Source: a virus. From it: a stretch of 64,000 nt of DNA. The notes beneath the pieces are model-generated. The model had not been told where the DNA came from, made no database searches, and saw nothing but the letters and a program-made list of their open reading frames with translations. The stretch is taken from the IMG/VR virus record IMGVR_UViG_3300028596_000009, positions 64,001-128,000 of that record. One strand, given 5' to 3'. The position numbers and the translations under genes were made by a program. How positions within the stretch are numbered: the first letter of the stretch is position 1; every line of letters begins with the position of its first letter. Below are positions 1,196 through 9,554 of this stretch, piece by piece.

Positions 1196-1224
1196 TTGCA
1201 AGATTCCTGAAGAACGCCTAACCT
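1196..1224 (+). promoter_or_regulatory. Sigma70/HrdB-type promoter for the RNA array
   Basis: TTGCAA-17 nt-TAACCT directly upstream of the array. Confidence 0.6.
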
Positions 1225-1384
1225 CTTTTTGGGGATACCGCGCAGGGGCGCCACTGCTTACTCAACAGGGGCGCCCCGGCTTGGAAAGCTCTTCGGAATG
1301 GTCAGTTGCCTAACGGCAACTGTGTGGGATGGCTACCCACATTGCAGTACGGACGCTCCGGTATCGAACATCGGGGCGTTTATG

Positions 1385-1464
1385 GGGACTGTGGCGGAAT
1401 TGGTAGACGTTGGTGGTCGAGGGTGCCTCCCTGGCCGTGCGGGTTCGAATCCCGTCAGCTCCCC
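1385..1464 (+). tRNA. Degenerate Leu-type tRNA (anticodon uncertain, GAG or CGA)
   Basis: Leu-like D region TGGCGGAATTGGTAGACG, T arm GCGGG-TTCGAAT-CCCGT; acceptor stem has a bulge, anticodon arm irregular. Confidence 0.5.
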
Positions 1465-1498
1465 CTGGCCGTTGAATGCGAGGATGGCCTCTCGCGCT

Positions 1499-1575
1499 GG
1501 GTGTGTAGTCCAACAGCAGAGACAGCGGCCCGAACGCCGTGACAGTGCCGGTATCGAATCCGGCCACACCCGCCA
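1499..1575 (+). tRNA. tRNA-like RNA with 6-nt anticodon loop and 8-nt T loop, encoded CCA
   Basis: GGGTGTG/CACACCC acceptor + GCCA; GCGGC-CCGAAC-GCCGT; GCCGG-TATCGAAT-CCGGC. Confidence 0.6.
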
Positions 1576-1648
1576 GCCCTCGTAGCTCACTCGGTAGAGC
1601 AGCTCCCTCGTAAGGAGCAGGCAGCAGGTTCGATCCCTGTCGAGGGCT
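1576..1648 (+). tRNA. tRNA-Thr(CGT)
   Basis: Full cloverleaf; GCTCC-CTCGTAA-GGAGC. Confidence 0.92.
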
Positions 1649-1650
1649 CT

Positions 1651-1720
1651 GGGTGACCGTGGTGTCCGCAACGCACACCGATCGTATTTCGGAGGAGCGG
1701 GCCGACCCCGCCGGTTACCC
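1651..1720 (+). ncRNA. Cloverleaf-shaped RNA without tRNA consensus loops
   Basis: GGGTGACCG/CGGTTACCC closing helix enclosing GGTGT/ACACC, TCG/CGG and GCGGG/CCCGC hairpins. Confidence 0.45.
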
Positions 1721-1727
1721 TGCACAA

Positions 1728-1817
1728 GGACAGAGCTTGCGTCGTTGGCCAGACGCGGGGTGTCGTACGCACCTTGCCCCGACGGGGGCTCCGGAGGTTC
1801 GAATCCTTCTCTGTCCA
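1728..1817 (+). tRNA. tRNA-Tyr(GTA) with atypical anticodon loop
   Basis: GGACAGA/TCTGTCC acceptor, long variable arm GCCCC/GGGGC, T arm GGAGG-TTCGAAT-CCTTC, loop TC-GTA-CG (C33, C37). Confidence 0.75.
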
Positions 1818-1888
1818 CGCGGGCCCCATATGGGGCGACAGGGCCAAGTGGGCCCCTGCTCGTTCGAACCGAGGAGAAAGCCCACCCA

Positions 1889-1961
1889 GGATCTGTAGCT
1901 CAGGAGTGAGAGCGCTCGCCTGAAAAGCGAGAGGTCGATGGTGCGACTCCATCCGGATCTA
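1889..1961 (+). tRNA. tRNA-Phe(GAA)
   Basis: Cloverleaf; CTCGC-CTGAAAA-GCGAG; variant T loop TGCGACT. Confidence 0.88.
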
Positions 1962-1977
1962 CGCTAGGGACCCACCA

Positions 1978-2105
1978 GACTGGATATGGGATGGGCGCCG
2001 GTGAAGGCATCGGACATATGGGCGCAGGCCCCACCCGATGAGATAGCCCGGCTCCATGTGGGTGCGCGGCTCTGTCGACGGACAGGGACGTAGGAGAGTT
2101 CAGTC
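1978..2105 (+). ncRNA. Unclassified structured RNA between tRNAs
   Basis: GACTGGAT/GTTCAGTC closing helix; internal CCCAC/GTGGG and CTGTC/GACAG pairs. Confidence 0.35.
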
Positions 2106-2107
2106 AC

Positions 2108-2182
2108 GCCTTCGTAGCTCAGCCTGGTCAGAGCACTCGCCTGTCGAGCGAAAGGTCGCCGGTTCGAATCCGGTCGAGGGCG
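2108..2182 (+). tRNA. tRNA-Asp(GTC)
   Basis: Cloverleaf; loop CT-GTC-GA; GCCGG-TTCGAAT-CCGGT. Confidence 0.92.
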
Positions 2183-2250
2183 CGCCCCATAGGATCCTCC
2201 TGTGACACCTGGCGGTGACGGCCCCGGTGTGTGCCCGGTAAGCACACGAG

Positions 2251-2321
2251 GTCCCTGTAGCTCAGTTGGTACGAGCACCCTCAACGGTGGGAGGTCGCCG
2301 GTTCGACCCCGGCCAGGGACA
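2251..2321 (+). tRNA. tRNA body with truncated anticodon arm (no readable anticodon)
   Basis: Perfect acceptor GTCCCTG/CAGGGAC, D and T arms; anticodon arm 14 nt (CCCTCAACGGTGGG) instead of 17. Confidence 0.7.
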
Positions 2322-2394
2322 CGATGAAGGTGAGGGGTACCGTCACGTGGGAGAGAGACCCGTAGGCTGGTCCTTCTGGAAGAAACCCCCTCAG

Positions 2395-2467
2395 GCTCCT
2401 GTAGCTCAGTGGATAGAGCATCCGCCTTCTAAGCGGAGGGTCGCTGGTTCGAGCCCAGCCGGGGGCA
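2395..2467 (+). tRNA. tRNA-Arg(TCT)
   Basis: Cloverleaf; TCCGC-CTTCTAA-GCGGA. Confidence 0.93.
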
Positions 2468-2469
2468 CC

Positions 2470-2565
2470 GAGTCAGTCGGCATCGCGGTAACGCCGCAGG
2501 GAATCAGGACAAGTGGTGATTGGTCCTGCATGGTGGCCTACATTCTCTGCGGGACTGGCTCTCCA
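2470..2565 (+). ncRNA. Unclassified structured RNA ending in NCCA
   Basis: GAGTCAGTC/GACTGGCTC closing helix followed by TCCA; inner CGCAGGGAAT/ATTCTCTGCG and CAGGAC/GTCCTG helices. Confidence 0.5.
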
Positions 2566-2597
2566 TGGGCCTTCTGGGTCATGAAAACGTACTGCAC

Positions 2598-2670
2598 GGT
2601 CTTGTAGCTCAGCGGATAGAGCGGTCGTCTCCTAAACGACAGGTCACTGGTTCGAATCCAGTCAGGATCA
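2598..2670 (+). tRNA. tRNA-Arg(CCT)
   Basis: Cloverleaf; GTCGT-CTCCTAA-ACGAC. Confidence 0.93.
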
Positions 2671-2752
2671 CGGGTCTTCGGCGGTTTGTTGGCACAGCAC
2701 CGAGGACTAGGGCGGGGGCGTCGGCATAGGGCGTTCAAATCCCCGCCCGCAC

Positions 2753-2827
2753 TGGGGTGTGGCTCAGATGGACAGAGCGCCGATTACAACTCGGAGACCG
2801 CAGGTTCGAAGCCTGCCACCCCAACCA
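2753..2827 (+). tRNA. tRNA-like RNA with 4-bp anticodon stem (loop TTACAAC), encoded CCA
   Basis: TGGGGTG/CACCCCA + ACCA; CCGA-TTACAAC-TCGG; GCAGG-TTCGAAG-CCTGC. Confidence 0.7.
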
Positions 2828-2863
2828 GGGCCCCCGGCGACTGGACCCCCCGGGGGCCCTTTC
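2827..2863 (+). terminator. Terminator hairpin closing the RNA array
   Basis: AGGGCCCCCGG...CCGGGGGCCCT then a short T run. Confidence 0.65.
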
Positions 2864-2883
2864 CCATGGAAAGGGGAGAGGGC

Positions 2884-3366
2884 ATGGCCAAGTTCGTCCG
2901 CATCGAGGCGGAGCTGTTCACCGGGATCGCCTACTGGGCCCGGATCGAGTACTACGAGGCCGGTCCGGGACATGTCCACGTGATCGACGACTACCGGGAT
3001 TACGCGGAGTACATCGCGCCGGGCGCCGAGACCTCCCTTCAGGGAGTGTTCATGCGCGAGTCCGGCGAGTGGGGTGAGATCTGGATGCCGTGCCCCGACA
3101 ACGTCGAGTTCGTCGCCAAGGGCGCCATGCTGGCCTCGCTGCGCAGCCACGCGGAGGGATGGGACGCGTACCTCCAGCCCACCCTGAGCTTCTTTTTCGA
3201 CAACACCGGCAGCGTGTTTCCGCTGGCCATGGAGGACATCTCGTCGGCTCTGTCGCACAAGATTCCCATCGGCTCGTACGTTACCTTCGAGGCGGCGAAG
3301 GATGCCGTCGGTGTCCACGCCAGGCCGTACGACGGGGAGAAGCGGCGCGTTCCGTACATCTGGTAA
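2884..3366 (+). CDS. Hypothetical protein between tRNA array and Y RNA locus
   Basis: GGAAAGGGGAG RBS, ATG 2884, high GC3, 160 aa. Confidence 0.8.
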   Translation: MAKFVRIEAELFTGIAYWARIEYYEAGPGHVHVIDDYRDYAEYIAPGAETSLQGVFMRESGEWGEIWMPCPDNVEFVAKGAMLASLRSHAEGWDAYLQPTLSFFFDNTGSVFPLAMEDISSALSHKIPIGSYVTFEAAKDAVGVHARPYDGEKRRVPYIW

Positions 3367-3410: not shown

Positions 3411-3481
3411 ACACCGGCACGATCGACAGCGGCTACTTCAATCGGTGAACTCACGCCGCAGTCTACTTTTTGGTCGGGTGT
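3411..3481 (+). ncRNA. Y RNA-like copy 1 (minimal)
   Basis: Terminal helix with CGGCACGA / TTTTTGGTCG bulged stem and CGGCTACTTCA motif shared with copies 2 and 3; adjacent to Ro60. Confidence 0.75.
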
Positions 3482-3588
3482 CACGGGCCTCCTGATGGGG
3501 AGGCGGCACGAAGGTAACGGCTACTTCACTGGTAATGAAACGACGCCGTCACCGTCTTTTTGGTCGTCACCTCTTCAGGAGGCCCGTG
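3482..3588 (+). ncRNA. Y RNA-like copy 2 with Thr(GGT) anticodon-like hairpin
   Basis: 14-bp perfect closing helix CACGGGCCTCCTGA/TCAGGAGGCCCGTG; CGGCACGAAGG / TTTTTGGTCG; TTCA-CTGGTAA-TGAA. Confidence 0.8.
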
Positions 3589-3750
3589 CTGCTGAGATGG
3601 ATGCTCGGCACGCAGGCATGCGGTTACTTCCACTGTTAATGGGGTGGTTGCGGGTTCGAATCCCGCCGGGCCCTTCGGGACCTGTAGCTCAACGGCAGAG
3701 CACCTTGTTACCGCCGCCGACTTTTTGGCCGAGCATCCTTCTGAGCAGCA
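3587..3750 (+). ncRNA. yrlA: YrlA-type Y RNA copy 3 containing a circularly permuted tRNA-Asn(GTT)-like domain
   Basis: GGATGCTCGGC/GCCGAGCATCC stem; then anticodon arm (TTCCA-CTGTTAA-TGGGG), T arm (GCGGG-TTCGAAT-CCCGC), acceptor closed by cUUCGg, D arm (GCTC-AACGGCA-GAGC). Confidence 0.85.
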
Positions 3751-3806: not shown

Positions 3807-5405
3807 ATGGCTCGCATGAACAACAAGCTGACGGCCGCGTCGCTGGTCTCCAGCGTCACCTCGGTCGCTCCGGCGGTCACCGCGCAGGGCGGGAAGGGGT
3901 ACACCAGGGACGCCAAGTCCGAGCTGTACCTCCTGGCCATCGCGAACTTCTACAACCAGGACACCTTCTACGAGACCGGCGACAAGCGCGACACCCGGTT
4001 CGCGGAGCTGGTCAAGAAGGTCGCGGTCGAGGATCTCGACTGGATCTCCAGCATGGCCGGGTGGCTGCGCTCGGGCGCCAACATGCGCACCGCGTCCCTG
4101 GTCATGGGTGTTGAGGCCGTCAAGGCCCGGCTGGACGCCCGGCTGTTCGAGGGCAACGCGAAGCTGCTGAACAGCGTCATGCAGCGCGCCGACGAGCCGG
4201 GCGAGGTCATCGCCTACTGGCGCTCGAAGTACGGCCGCACGCTGCCGGAGCCGGTCCTGAAGGCCCTGAAGTGGTCGGTGTCGCGGCTGTTCAACGAGCG
4301 GTCGTACCTCAAGTGGGACTCCTCCGCCCGGGGCATGTCCTTCGCGGACATCCTGCGGATCGTGCACCCGGACCCGGTGGCGGTGTGGCAGGACAAGCTG
4401 TTCAAGGCGATCCTCGACCGGTCCTTCGGTAACGAGGCCGACCTGGAGGGCCTCGACGTCCTGAAGCAGAACAGGCTCTGGCGTGAGCTGGTGGCCAGTG
4501 ATCCGACCTGCAAGCTTCTGCTCGACCCGGGCTTCATCAAGAGCGCGGGGCTCACGTGGGAGGACGTCCTGTCGGCGCTCGGCTCGAAGGTCAACAAGAA
4601 GCTCCTGTGGGAGGCGATCATCCCGTCGATGGGCTATATGGCCCTGCTGCGGAACCTCAGGAACTTCGACCAGGCCGGGGTGAGTGACGAGGTGGCCTCC
4701 GAGGTCATCGCCAAGCTGACCGACCCGGACGAAGTGGAGCGCTCCCGGCAGATGCCGATGCGGTTCTACTCGGCGTACAAGGCGGCGCCGTCGCTGCGCT
4801 GGGGCTACGCCCTGGAGAAGGCGCTGGAGATGACGCTGAAGAACATCCCGAAGCTGAAGGGCCGCACCCTCATCCTCGTGGACTCCTCGGGGTCCATGTC
4901 CGAGTCCTTCTCGAAGGACGGCTCGGTGCACCGGTGGGACGCGGCGGTGCTCTTCGGCGTCGCCCTGGCCCGCGAGTGTGCCGACGTGGACGTGGTCTCG
5001 TTCTCCTCGGGCTACTGGGGCGGACGCAGGCTCACCATGAACTTCCCGCTGGTGAAGGGGGAGTCGCTGCTGTCGGCGCTGAAGCGGTGGGAGAAGGACG
5101 GCTACTTCATCGGCGGCGGCACGGACACGGTGATGGCGCTCCAGGCCAGCTACCGGGACCACGACCGGGTGGTTATCCTGACCGACGAGCAGGCCGGGCA
5201 CGACGGCATCGAGGTCAGCAACGCCATCCCGGCGAAGGTGCCGCTGTACACGTGGAACCTGGCGGGCTACAAGGTCGGCCACGCGCCGTCGGGTTCGGGC
5301 AACCGGCACGTCTTCGGCGGCCTGACGGACAGTGCGTTCACCCAGATCGCCCTGCTGGAGAACCGGCGTGCCGGTTCCTGGCCGTGGCAGGTGGTGGGAG
5401 ACTAG
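3807..5405 (+). CDS. rsr: Ro60/Rsr TROVE-domain RNA-binding protein with C-terminal vWA domain
   Basis: ELYLLA...DTFYE, RADEPGE, TWE..LS, MGYMALLRNLRNF, ILVDSSGSM (MIDAS), GGTD, ILTDEQ; start moved to ATG 3807 behind GGAGAGGGGA. Confidence 0.95.
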   Translation: MARMNNKLTAASLVSSVTSVAPAVTAQGGKGYTRDAKSELYLLAIANFYNQDTFYETGDKRDTRFAELVKKVAVEDLDWISSMAGWLRSGANMRTASLVMGVEAVKARLDARLFEGNAKLLNSVMQRADEPGEVIAYWRSKYGRTLPEPVLKALKWSVSRLFNERSYLKWDSSARGMSFADILRIVHPDPVAVWQDKLFKAILDRSFGNEADLEGLDVLKQNRLWRELVASDPTCKLLLDPGFIKSAGLTWEDVLSALGSKVNKKLLWEAIIPSMGYMALLRNLRNFDQAGVSDEVASEVIAKLTDPDEVERSRQMPMRFYSAYKAAPSLRWGYALEKALEMTLKNIPKLKGRTLILVDSSGSMSESFSKDGSVHRWDAAVLFGVALARECADVDVVSFSSGYWGGRRLTMNFPLVKGESLLSALKRWEKDGYFIGGGTDTVMALQASYRDHDRVVILTDEQAGHDGIEVSNAIPAKVPLYTWNLAGYKVGHAPSGSGNRHVFGGLTDSAFTQIALLENRRAGSWPWQVVGD

Positions 5406-8883: not shown

Positions 8884-9554
8884 TGTTCCACTACCACACT
8901 ACCTACACGCTGCCCCGGGACTACTCCTGGGTTCCCGTGAAGATCGTGAATGCCTCTCTCGGCGTGAAGAACGTCCGCGCTCTCAGTGACCACGGTGACT
9001 ACGTCCACATCGAGGAGAAGGAACTCGACTACTTCCACGTTGAGGCGATACACGCCGACCCCTTCTACGTCCCCCGCCCACAGCCCTACTCGCTCGACAT
9101 CCTGGCCTTTCCCGCCCGGTTCCCTTCCAGGCTGCACGCCACTTCGGGACGGAGCTTCACCAACGACTTCGGTCTGCATCTGATGCGCTCCACGGGAACG
9201 AGCAACCCGGAGAAGGTGACCGCAGACCAGCTTCCCGGCGTCGCGGAGCGGATGATCGGCGCGATCGTCATGATGCAGGTCCGGCACGTCGTGAGGGACA
9301 ACGAGGTCTACGACAGGCTGGACGGAAAGCCCCACCCCGTACCGAACCGAACCATCCAGGTGCTCACCTCCTGGGGCTGGCTCAAGGGAGAAGTGCCCTG
9401 GCGCGCGGTGAAGACCCTCATGGACGACGAAGTGAAGACCGGTTCGACGATCGAAGTCGCCCTGGGCATGGGGATGGGAACCGTCACCGCCTGCTGGATG
9501 AACGGCCGCTGGGAGCACGCCGCTGCCGACCTTCGTACCAAGAACCGGAAGTAG
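8883..9554 (+). CDS. Hypothetical protein
   Basis: Translationally coupled, high GC3. Confidence 0.75.
   Translation: MFHYHTTYTLPRDYSWVPVKIVNASLGVKNVRALSDHGDYVHIEEKELDYFHVEAIHADPFYVPRPQPYSLDILAFPARFPSRLHATSGRSFTNDFGLHLMRSTGTSNPEKVTADQLPGVAERMIGAIVMMQVRHVVRDNEVYDRLDGKPHPVPNRTIQVLTSWGWLKGEVPWRAVKTLMDDEVKTGSTIEVALGMGMGTVTACWMNGRWEHAAADLRTKNRK

Follow-up and report, generated by a model that had tools for sequence, protein, structure and literature searches.

Phage tRNA genes are nowadays interpreted chiefly as spares or resistant replacements in the face of tRNA-cutting immunity, and odd tRNA calls in phage arrays are usually dismissed as pseudogenes. Whether either view fits is the question raised by a tRNA array in the IMG/VR virus record IMGVR_UViG_3300028596_000009 (166.8 kb, 64% G+C), of which bases 64001–128000, a stretch of 64,000 nucleotides referred to as the window, were analysed. 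Five tRNA-shaped genes of this array, designated E1 to E5, carry abnormal anticodon arms. An original prediction had described them as tRNA genes with intact bodies and selectively damaged anticodon arms, and had proposed that they are either nuclease-resistant variants or non-decoding tRNA mimics, possibly tied in function to the adjacent Ro60 locus. The interpretation that best fits the anatomy, held at a probability of roughly 45%, is that E1–E5 are co-transcribed tRNA-derived genes that may have turned into non-decoding tRNA mimics. At least two of them (E1 and E3) appear to be selected for, odd arms included, over a divergence at which silent sites are saturated.

The tRNA array and the anatomy of its aberrant members

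Ten tRNA-shaped genes lie on the plus strand at 1384–2827 of the window, between a promoter-like site and a terminator. Five of them are canonical (Thr-CGU, Phe-GAA, Asp-GUC, Arg-UCU and Arg-CCU) and score 63.5–67.7 bits with the Rfam tRNA model (RF00005, gathering cut-off 29 bits). The other five, E1–E5, reach 25–53 bits in Rfam, and every one has a non-standard anticodon arm. ARAGORN called nine of the ten genes by default, four of them oddly ('Pro-agg' of 81 nt, Tyr of 91 nt, an undetermined tRNA with a two-base 'anticodon', and Cys-aca), and the tenth (E2) only at the relaxed threshold -ps90. The presence of five plus-strand elements with abnormal anticodon arms at the positions first proposed was borne out by the sequence, ARAGORN and Rfam alike. 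When both strands of the whole genome were scanned for a tRNA signature (a 5-bp T stem with T-loop motif, then a 7/7 acceptor helix), nine occurrences were found in 166.8 kb, all nine of them inside the array. The array elements are real, beyond chance. No open reading frame (ORF) with coding-type composition was detected by an ORF composition check in the 1.7 kb between 1196 and 2883. It is almost certain that E1–E5 are real, tRNA-derived and part of one operon with the canonical tRNA genes.

E1 (1384–1465, plus strand; ARAGORN 'Pro-agg') has a body derived from tRNA-Leu, in which a D arm of the Leu type is combined with a canonical T arm; in a search of 50,697 phage records, the top match was a tRNA-Leu of Microbacterium phage Zooman. 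A central hairpin (1415–1436) replaces the anticodon and variable arms, and the sequence does not allow a 5-bp anticodon stem with a 7-nt loop; the 28 nt from D arm to T arm form one bulged hairpin (GGUC-G-AGGG, loop UGCCU). The Rfam tRNA score of 26.7 bits lies under the 29-bit gathering score. The acceptor contains an A:C mismatch in the 7-bp register or, alternatively, 8 bp with a bulged C1459 if G1384 is counted. Reading the eighth pair as a His-type G-1:C73 was considered and retained as no more than a lead, as the pair does not vary and hence gives no covariation, and chance often makes positions -1 and 73 complementary in the neighbours. Comparison with transfer-messenger RNA (tmRNA, RF00023) gave 13.8 bits against a cut-off of 47, with G3:C/U by register only, no tag ORF and no ARAGORN tmRNA call, and E1 was not placed in this class.

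E2 (1499–1575, plus strand; 30.0 bits) is a cloverleaf with perfectly paired acceptor, anticodon and T stems. Its anticodon arm consists of a 5-bp stem and a 6-nt loop (CCGAAC) without U33 in register, and its elbow is non-canonical, with a 3-bp D stem, no GG in the D loop and an 8-nt T loop (TATCGAAT). The minimum free energy (MFE) fold is the cloverleaf (z -2.33), and the encoded G-CCA directly adjoins G1 of tRNA-Thr.

E3 (1728–1818, plus strand; ARAGORN Tyr-gta) is a Tyr-like class-II element in which A73 and a long variable arm accompany the anticodon GUA within the loop U-C-GUA-C-G (1763–1769). Positions 33 and 37 are both C (1764 and 1768), so U33 and purine 37 are absent, and positions 32:38 are pairable, which would leave a 5-nt loop. 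The D stem has 5 bp, and the linker from acceptor to D arm is 4 nt instead of 2. In Rfam, no match to the tRNA model is listed for E3, and the kept match is to tRNA-Sec (RF01852) at 25.2 bits with a cut-off of 47. ARAGORN can draw E3 as an 8/4 structure and a 7/5 fold is equally good; given the score, the anticodon GUA and an MFE fold of the 7/5 type, E3 was assigned neither to tRNA-Sec nor to the 8/4 allo-tRNAs.

E4 (2251–2322, plus strand; ARAGORN '???(ca)', 48.8 bits) has a class-I body of the Lys/Arg-UCU family in which all 16 body pairs are Watson-Crick. Its arm (2277–2295) is 3 nt short, with 14 nt in the anticodon arm instead of 17, and forms a bulged hairpin jointly with the variable region. 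E5 (2753–2827, plus strand; ARAGORN Cys-aca, 52.9 bits) is the final gene ahead of the terminator and combines an Arg-type D arm, U1-A72, A73 and an encoded A-CCA with a 4-bp anticodon stem (CCGA/UCGG, 2780–2783/2791–2794) and the loop UUACAAC.

Taken by arm, none of E1–E5 has the standard combination of 5-bp anticodon stem, 7-nt loop, U33 and purine 37, although the loop of E5 is formally normal. A 7-bp acceptor, a 5-bp T stem, a TTCRANY T-loop and a D-loop GG are all present in E3, E4 and E5; E1 has them except for one acceptor bulge or mismatch, and E2 departs at the T loop and D loop. The intact bodies first described therefore hold for three elements and do not extend to the acceptor of E1 or the elbow of E2. 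The acceptors of E2–E5 are Watson-Crick at all 28 pairs, and the 35 acceptor pairs of the five canonical genes comprise 28 Watson-Crick and 7 G.U pairs. The MFE folds of E2–E5 are cloverleaves with z between -2.1 and -2.5 (tRNA-Thr -2.3). The 29-bit cut-off is passed by E5, E4 and E2 and missed by E1 and E3, and the passes stem from the body, as the model skips the arm. The concentration of damage in the anticodon arm describes this anatomy well; elements hit in the acceptor or T arm would escape recognition as tRNA-like, so part of the selectivity is a matter of ascertainment.

The two encoded CCA ends of the original prediction were found at E2 (1573–1575, G-CCA) and E5 (2825–2827, A-CCA). 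A third encoded NCCA lies in the spacer RNA at 2470–2565, which ends in a helix followed by U-CCA (about 2562–2565). All five canonical tRNA genes lack this feature, so it is found in non-canonical members only.

Conservation in two related phages

The relatives available for comparison are two metagenome contigs, L017 and L018, which were reached through homologues of ORF160 (2884–3366), so that three genomes could be aligned. Identity between the window and these contigs is 57–59% at four-fold degenerate sites, which amounts to saturation for the composition, 54% for the Ro60 protein and 75–85% for the canonical tRNAs.

E1 heads the array in each of the three genomes. The window and L017 copies are 93% identical, and the L018 copy shares 69–72% identity with them. 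Among the three genomes, three pairs in the acceptor and four in the central hairpin have changed on both sides; the hairpin core AGGG/CCCU is retained, with differences in the outer pairs and the loop. In the 28-nt central region, the window and L017 are separated by a single change, which preserves pairing. RNAalifold paired the 5' strand of the D arm of E1 with the 3' strand of the T arm, and this was treated as an artefact of two invariant complementary arms.

An orthologue of E3 was found at L018:9654–9743 and is 86% identical to the window copy. All 28 pairs are standard in both sequences. Eight stem positions differ, affecting 6 of the 28 pairs, and none is broken; one pair has changed on both sides in the D stem and another in the variable arm. 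C33, GUA and C37 are identical in both, pair 32:38 goes from U.G to C-G, and the anticodon arm as a whole is identical at 15 of 17 positions, with pair-preserving changes only. As a register control, the 3' partners were shifted by 1–3 columns, after which 36–61% of the cells paired.

A neutral pseudogene is expected to show differences in all arms and broken pairs, and neither E1 nor E3 follows this expectation. Uniform mutation over the arms in relatives, named with the original prediction as the outcome that would speak against it, was not what the comparison gave for these two elements; pair-preserving and compensatory changes were found instead. As E1 and E3 show an identity at least equal to that of the canonical tRNAs at saturated divergence, together with compensatory changes, plain decay is excluded for both, and the comparison makes it very probable that the two are maintained by selection, odd arms included.

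For E2, E4 and E5, no orthologue was found in L017 or L018. The closest paralogue of E4 is the Arg-UCU gene of the window (74% identity), and E4 carries derived compensatory changes in the T stem and acceptor in comparison with its Lys/Arg-UCU relatives. E5 and the terminal Arg-UCU of L018 have the same D arm; the two genes differ at all seven acceptor pairs, yet E5 is still perfectly paired.

The content of the array turns over fast, with modules shuffled, gained and lost. L017 carries E1, Thr, an aberrant element X (9410–9503), Asp, Lys-CUU and Arg-UCU, and L018 carries E1, Thr, Lys-CUU, E3 and Arg-UCU, so that the aberrant members differ by genome (E1 and X in L017, E1 and E3 in L018). X combines a 7-bp acceptor and canonical T arm with an additional hairpin in the place of the D arm and a 9-nt loop containing CUCAAC. 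Homology between E4 and X was considered, as the loop word CCCTCAAC occurs in both, and was rejected, since their alignment scores below that of E4 with ordinary tRNAs. Spacers of the window (1819–1888, 1963–2107, 2323–2394 and 2672–2752) are structured and 73–80% identical to spacers of L017 and L018 that lie beside different tRNAs, and they therefore seem to move as units. The spacer at 2323–2394 forms a three-way junction of about 72 nt in which six pairs have changed on both sides.

The canonical genes lie on the plus strand at 1576–1649 (tRNA-Thr(CGU), 63.5 bits, also called by ARAGORN), 1889–1962 (tRNA-Phe(GAA), 64.0 bits), 2108–2183 (tRNA-Asp(GUC), 63.8 bits), 2395–2469 (tRNA-Arg(UCU), 67.7 bits) and 2598–2671 (tRNA-Arg(CCU), 67.2 bits). 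The nearest relative of the window Arg-UCU is the Lys-CUU of L017 and L018 (80–83%) and not their Arg-UCU. The anticodon stem is identical in this pair, the anticodon goes from CTT to TCT, T20 is replaced by A20, which is an Arg identity element, and the window has no Lys-CUU gene. From these sequences, the window Arg-UCU is probably an identity-switched orthologue of the Lys-CUU gene of the relatives. Outside the array, a solitary tRNA-Ile(GAU) with a U:C mismatch at acceptor pair 6:67 is located at C1:62039–62113 of the genome (L002:1496–1570), about 1.9 kb upstream of the window, and L017 and L018 have a tRNA-Leu(CAA) at the corresponding relative position.

The order of a small basic CxxC protein, promoter-like site, tRNA array, terminator, ORF160, second promoter-like site, three Y RNAs, Ro60, 119-aa ORF and SNF2 helicase is common to the three genomes. 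The CxxC protein ahead of the array (1025–1195, 56 aa) is 68–70% identical in the two contigs. The promoter-like site of the window (TTGCAA-17 nt-TAACCT, 1196–1224, plus strand) was read from the sequence and is followed by a leader of about 160 nt. A strict consensus promoter scan did not flag it, and an equivalent site (TTGCCA-17-(C)ATAAC(C/A)T) is located after the CxxC gene in both L017 and L018. The array is closed by a GC-rich stem-loop followed by TTTCCC (2828–2870, plus strand), also read by eye and not flagged by a strict terminator scan, and clear stem-plus-T-run terminators occur at the equivalent position in L017 and L018. ORF160, 160 aa long and directly after the array, belongs to no Pfam or PHROG family, and its AlphaFold model (pLDDT 77) matched no fold in the PDB with E <0.06.

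Among isolated phages, no close relative of the region, E1, E3 or ORF160 was found. Searches of IMG/VR with the E5 pattern, the E3 pattern, ORF160 (as single sequence and profile), a profile of the small CxxC protein and the SNF2 helicase revealed no relative, and an IMG/VR scan with spacer motifs gave chance-level matches only. In 185,579 bacterial genomes, there was neither an ORF160 relative nor an E3-type arm. The closest isolated-phage proteins to the window Ro60 are those of Streptomyces phages (40–44% identity), and on this ground the source virus is an uncultured soil actinophage with Streptomyces or a relative as its probable host.

Decoding capacity, possible function and rival explanations

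In elongator tRNAs, a 7-nt loop, a 5-bp stem, U33 and purine 37 are near-universal and needed for the U-turn and for stable codon reading, and the acceptor/T half is the part read by RNase P, RNase Z, CCA-adding enzyme and EF-Tu. Measured against this, E1 has no anticodon arm, the loops of E2 and E4 are too small, and E3 is without U33 and purine 37. E5 has a 4-bp stem, and its anticodon ACA (A34) and A73 misfit Cys identity. Judged by these features, at least four of the five elements probably do not decode.

A possible scenario for E1–E5 as non-decoding mimics starts from selection that would retain acceptor stem and T arm together with the D/T elbow (the last in four of five), parts that are read by processing enzymes and many tRNA-binding proteins, while the anticodon arm would be rebuilt into a hairpin unable to present a normal anticodon. 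RNase P and 3' processing would release the elements from the polycistronic precursor like their canonical neighbours, and the RNase P cut at tRNA-Thr would create the mature CCA end of E2. The matured elements would then be stable look-alikes of a tRNA body that occupy some tRNA-binding partner. The best guess for this partner is a host factor of the tRNA-centred conflict between phage and host, such as a tRNA-targeting nuclease or sensor, and a role as decoys or competitors in defence evasion is a tentative and rather doubtful proposal. For E3, the partner may alternatively be a tRNA-handling enzyme such as TyrRS. GUA, A73 and a long variable arm make up the bacterial Tyr identity set, and the arm of E3 could keep Tyr identity nucleotides while decoding is prevented.

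Several points weigh against non-decoding mimics under selection. The conservation evidence comes from only three genomes, and from two sequences in the case of E3, where identity of the 5-nt loop core has a chance of about 0.47 at 86% overall identity, which is not significant alone, and where the shuffle control was weak (137/500). E1 is only 72% identical between L017 and L018, the closer pair, whose canonical tRNAs are 89–96% identical, and the 93% between the window and L017 may derive from module exchange rather than constraint. E2, E4 and E5, for which no orthologue was found, may carry recent lesions in formerly normal tRNAs. The 7-nt loop of E5 with U33 and A37 is formally normal, and E5 may still decode. 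Classical anticodon nucleases read the anticodon loop, which is absent here, and this weakens a decoy role against that class.

Of the explanations that compete with mimicry, the one that had been put forward together with it in the original prediction is that altered loops block an anticodon nuclease while translation continues. Such tRNAs have been predicted in phages (PMC10264068), and functional phage tRNA-Tyr and tRNA-Lys rescue from retron-Eco7 and PrrC (PMC11555353); E3 with its GUA, A73 and long variable arm and E5 with its 7-nt loop, U33 and A37 retain features that would suit this role. The published cases are, however, point substitutions in normal 7-nt loops, and four of the five elements have no normal 7-nt loop with U33 and purine 37, which makes resistant decoders unlikely: E1 has no anticodon arm at all, the loops of E2 and E4 are 6 nt or smaller, the loop of E3 can close to 5 nt through 32:38 and lacks both U33 and purine 37, and E5 combines its 4-bp stem with an A34 and A73 that misfit Cys identity. 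Nuclease resistance in the published sense was thus not upheld and is very improbable for the set. A different idea is that E1–E5 are former tRNAs kept only as processing punctuation, that is, as tRNA-shaped units for RNase P cleavage and 3' release of neighbouring tRNAs and spacers, with an anticodon arm free to degenerate since processing does not read it. This accounts for the retention of acceptor, T and D arms and not of the anticodon arm, and it agrees with the CCA of E2 adjoining tRNA-Thr, the distance of 6 nt between E1 and tRNA-Thr in L017, the structured spacers with 73–80% conservation (one with six pairs changed on both sides) and the E1 central hairpin of L018, which is strongly unlike those of the other two genomes. 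The arms are not free-running, however, as the 15 of 17 identical positions and the exclusively pair-preserving changes in E3 and the single pair-preserving change in the 28-nt centre of E1 between the window and L017, despite saturated neutral sites, indicate, and a mere punctuation mark could drop the arm entirely. As the arms of E1 and E3 are themselves conserved, punctuation explains both elements less well, and as the only role of the set it is unlikely.

Functionless pseudogenes with indels in the anticodon arm, heading for loss, would be an explanation mainly for E2, E4 and E5. The lack of orthologues in L017 and L018, the fast gain and loss of modules and the ascertainment bias toward intact bodies are in line with it, and the replacement Arg-UCU in the window could have left the terminal Arg-type gene, E5, open to decay. 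For E1 and E3 it is ruled out by conservation over saturated divergence and by compensatory changes. Even for the other three it is quite unlikely, as their acceptors are 7/7 Watson-Crick and their T stems 5/5 paired, cleaner than in the functional neighbours, the encoded CCA is confined, among the tRNA-shaped genes of the array, to E2 and E5, and E5 differs from its positional counterpart at 7/7 acceptor pairs and is still perfectly paired. It has also been considered that E1–E5 are components or substrates of a Ro60/Y-RNA particle, either as bodies that complement anticodon-arm mimics on the Y RNAs or as RNAs bound by the phage Ro60. The order of small protein, array, ORF160, three Y RNAs and Ro60 is conserved in three phages, Streptomyces phage BRock carries Ro60 within its tRNA array, and Y RNAs mimic tRNA (PMC4201824). 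Against this, E1–E5 belong to a separate transcription unit and lack the Y-RNA handle motif, which nearby is confined to the three Y RNAs, Ro60 genes with 52–58% identity occur with Y RNAs but without array, ORF160 and small protein, and neither RtcB nor RNA repair or CCA-adding genes were found in the phage genome. A partnership with Ro60 is therefore improbable.

The data on the Ro60 locus itself are as follows. The Y-RNA/Ro60 unit, with Ro60 at 3807–5405, lies downstream of the array and ORF160 and is served by a separate promoter-like site and terminator. The handle motif CGGYTACTT was located at 3430, 3518 and 3621, once for each of the three Y RNAs, and not between 1196 and 2883; the third Y RNA (3620–3735), about 800 nt downstream of the array, matched YrlA at 40.4 bits, below the cut-off of 69. 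When the YrlA model (RF02553) was applied to E1–E5, only T-arm/D-arm dimer artefacts of 13–27 bits were obtained. The Ro60 genes that occur with a Y RNA but without the array are as near (52–58% amino acid identity) as those of L017 and L018. In Streptomyces phage BRock, Ro60 lies inside an array of 27 tRNA genes, and a position in or near tRNA arrays is a general habit of actinophage Ro60 genes. The proposed functional tie between array and Ro60 thus failed to gain support and is limited to synteny in three related phages and this general habit. An extended version would be a two-part tRNA mimicry, in which tRNA bodies lacking a working anticodon, supplied by the tRNA operon, and anticodon-arm mimics on Ro60-bound Y RNAs would jointly bait or titrate tRNA-sensing or tRNA-cutting host enzymes; among the bodies would be a Tyr mimic whose GUA sits in a closed pentaloop and a Leu-type body whose acceptor has 8 bp. 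It has a low likelihood but, if true, would define a counter-defence class that differs from the supply of spare or resistant decoding tRNAs.

Further observations were made at Ro60 loci. The second Y RNA (window 3518–3560; L017:10640–10680; L018:10640–10680) has a Thr-GGU-like loop, CUGGUAA, in all three genomes, as seen by eye, and its stem shows a compensatory change (UUCA/UGAA versus UUCU/AGAA). Upstream of a 42%-identical Ro60, the region L012:5000–5860 contains at least 5–6 Y-RNA-like units with a common handle (GGTGCGAA...CGGCTACTTC), several of them with permuted tRNA modules and anticodon-like loops such as CUGCAAA. Unannotated tRNA-like elements were seen at L003:12016–12096 (Streptomyces phage BRock), L012:2516–2589 and L012:2603–2694; they combine a perfect acceptor and T arm with a non-canonical interior and lie within arrays of Ro60-bearing actinophages.

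As BRock has at least one such unannotated element, tRNA-like elements with aberrant anticodon arms are probably distributed more widely than in these phages. If the elements are processed and stable, they would represent a class of phage small RNAs that use the tRNA body for something besides decoding, and 'undetermined' and 'pseudo' tRNA calls in other large actinophages would deserve re-examination.

Comparison with known systems

E1–E5 belong to none of the families compared here, and the literature searches turned up no report of actinophage arrays with conserved, free-standing tRNA bodies whose anticodon arms are rebuilt. Nearest to them come RNA C and RNA D of phage T4, irregular tRNAs of phage clusters, YrlA and, in principle only, processing elements of the mascRNA type. 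Another near case is formed by phage tRNAs with anticodon-loop substitutions that are predicted to be resistant to anticodon nucleases (van den Berg et al. 2023, PMC10264068) and the functional phage tRNA-Tyr and tRNA-Lys that overcome retron-Eco7 and PrrC (PMC11555353). Like these, E1–E5 are phage-encoded, lie in a tRNA array and have their changes concentrated in the anticodon arm, and E3 is of the Tyr type. The published tRNAs are, however, canonical and decoding, with point changes in a 7-nt loop, whereas the arms of E1–E5 are shortened, re-paired or replaced. A nuclease-insensitive tRNA in the sense of PMC10264068, that is, a decoding tRNA with a substitution at the nuclease site, was not recognised among them, as the loop geometry is abnormal in four of five.

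Irregular tRNAs such as the 8/4 and 9/3 allo-tRNAs and tRNA-Sec-like forms also occur in phage clusters in some cases, and some were proposed to be regulatory (Mukai et al. 2017, PMC5389517). They share with the array non-standard cloverleaves in polycistronic clusters; E3 is drawable as 8/4, and an acceptor of 8 bp is open to E1. In allo-tRNAs the anticodon loop is normal, and both charging and decoding have been demonstrated, whereas the loop of E3 is abnormal and its 7/5 fold is equally good.

YrlA-type Y RNAs mimic tRNA and are partners of Ro60 in bacteria and phages (RF02553; Chen et al. 2014, PMC4201824). They are non-decoding RNAs, as E1–E5 probably are, and like them have kept T-arm, D-arm and acceptor-like portions of a tRNA. 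YrlA is circularly permuted and has a Ro60-binding bulged helix, whereas E1–E5 have normal topology, free 5' and 3' acceptor ends and no handle.

From the tRNA region of phage T4, the small stable RNAs RNA C and RNA D, whose roles are unknown, have been described (PMC3014915). The likeness to E1–E5 is that small RNAs other than tRNAs lie in a phage tRNA region and are transcribed from it. Co-processing with the tRNAs is generally ascribed to the two T4 RNAs, and they are not known to be near-complete cloverleaves.

The mascRNA from the MALAT1 end (RF01684) is eukaryotic, and its match to E1 is at chance level (14.4 bits). The resemblance is therefore one of principle only: mascRNA is a cloverleaf with a reduced anticodon arm that is recognised by RNase P, RNase Z and CCA-adding enzyme and has no use in translation.

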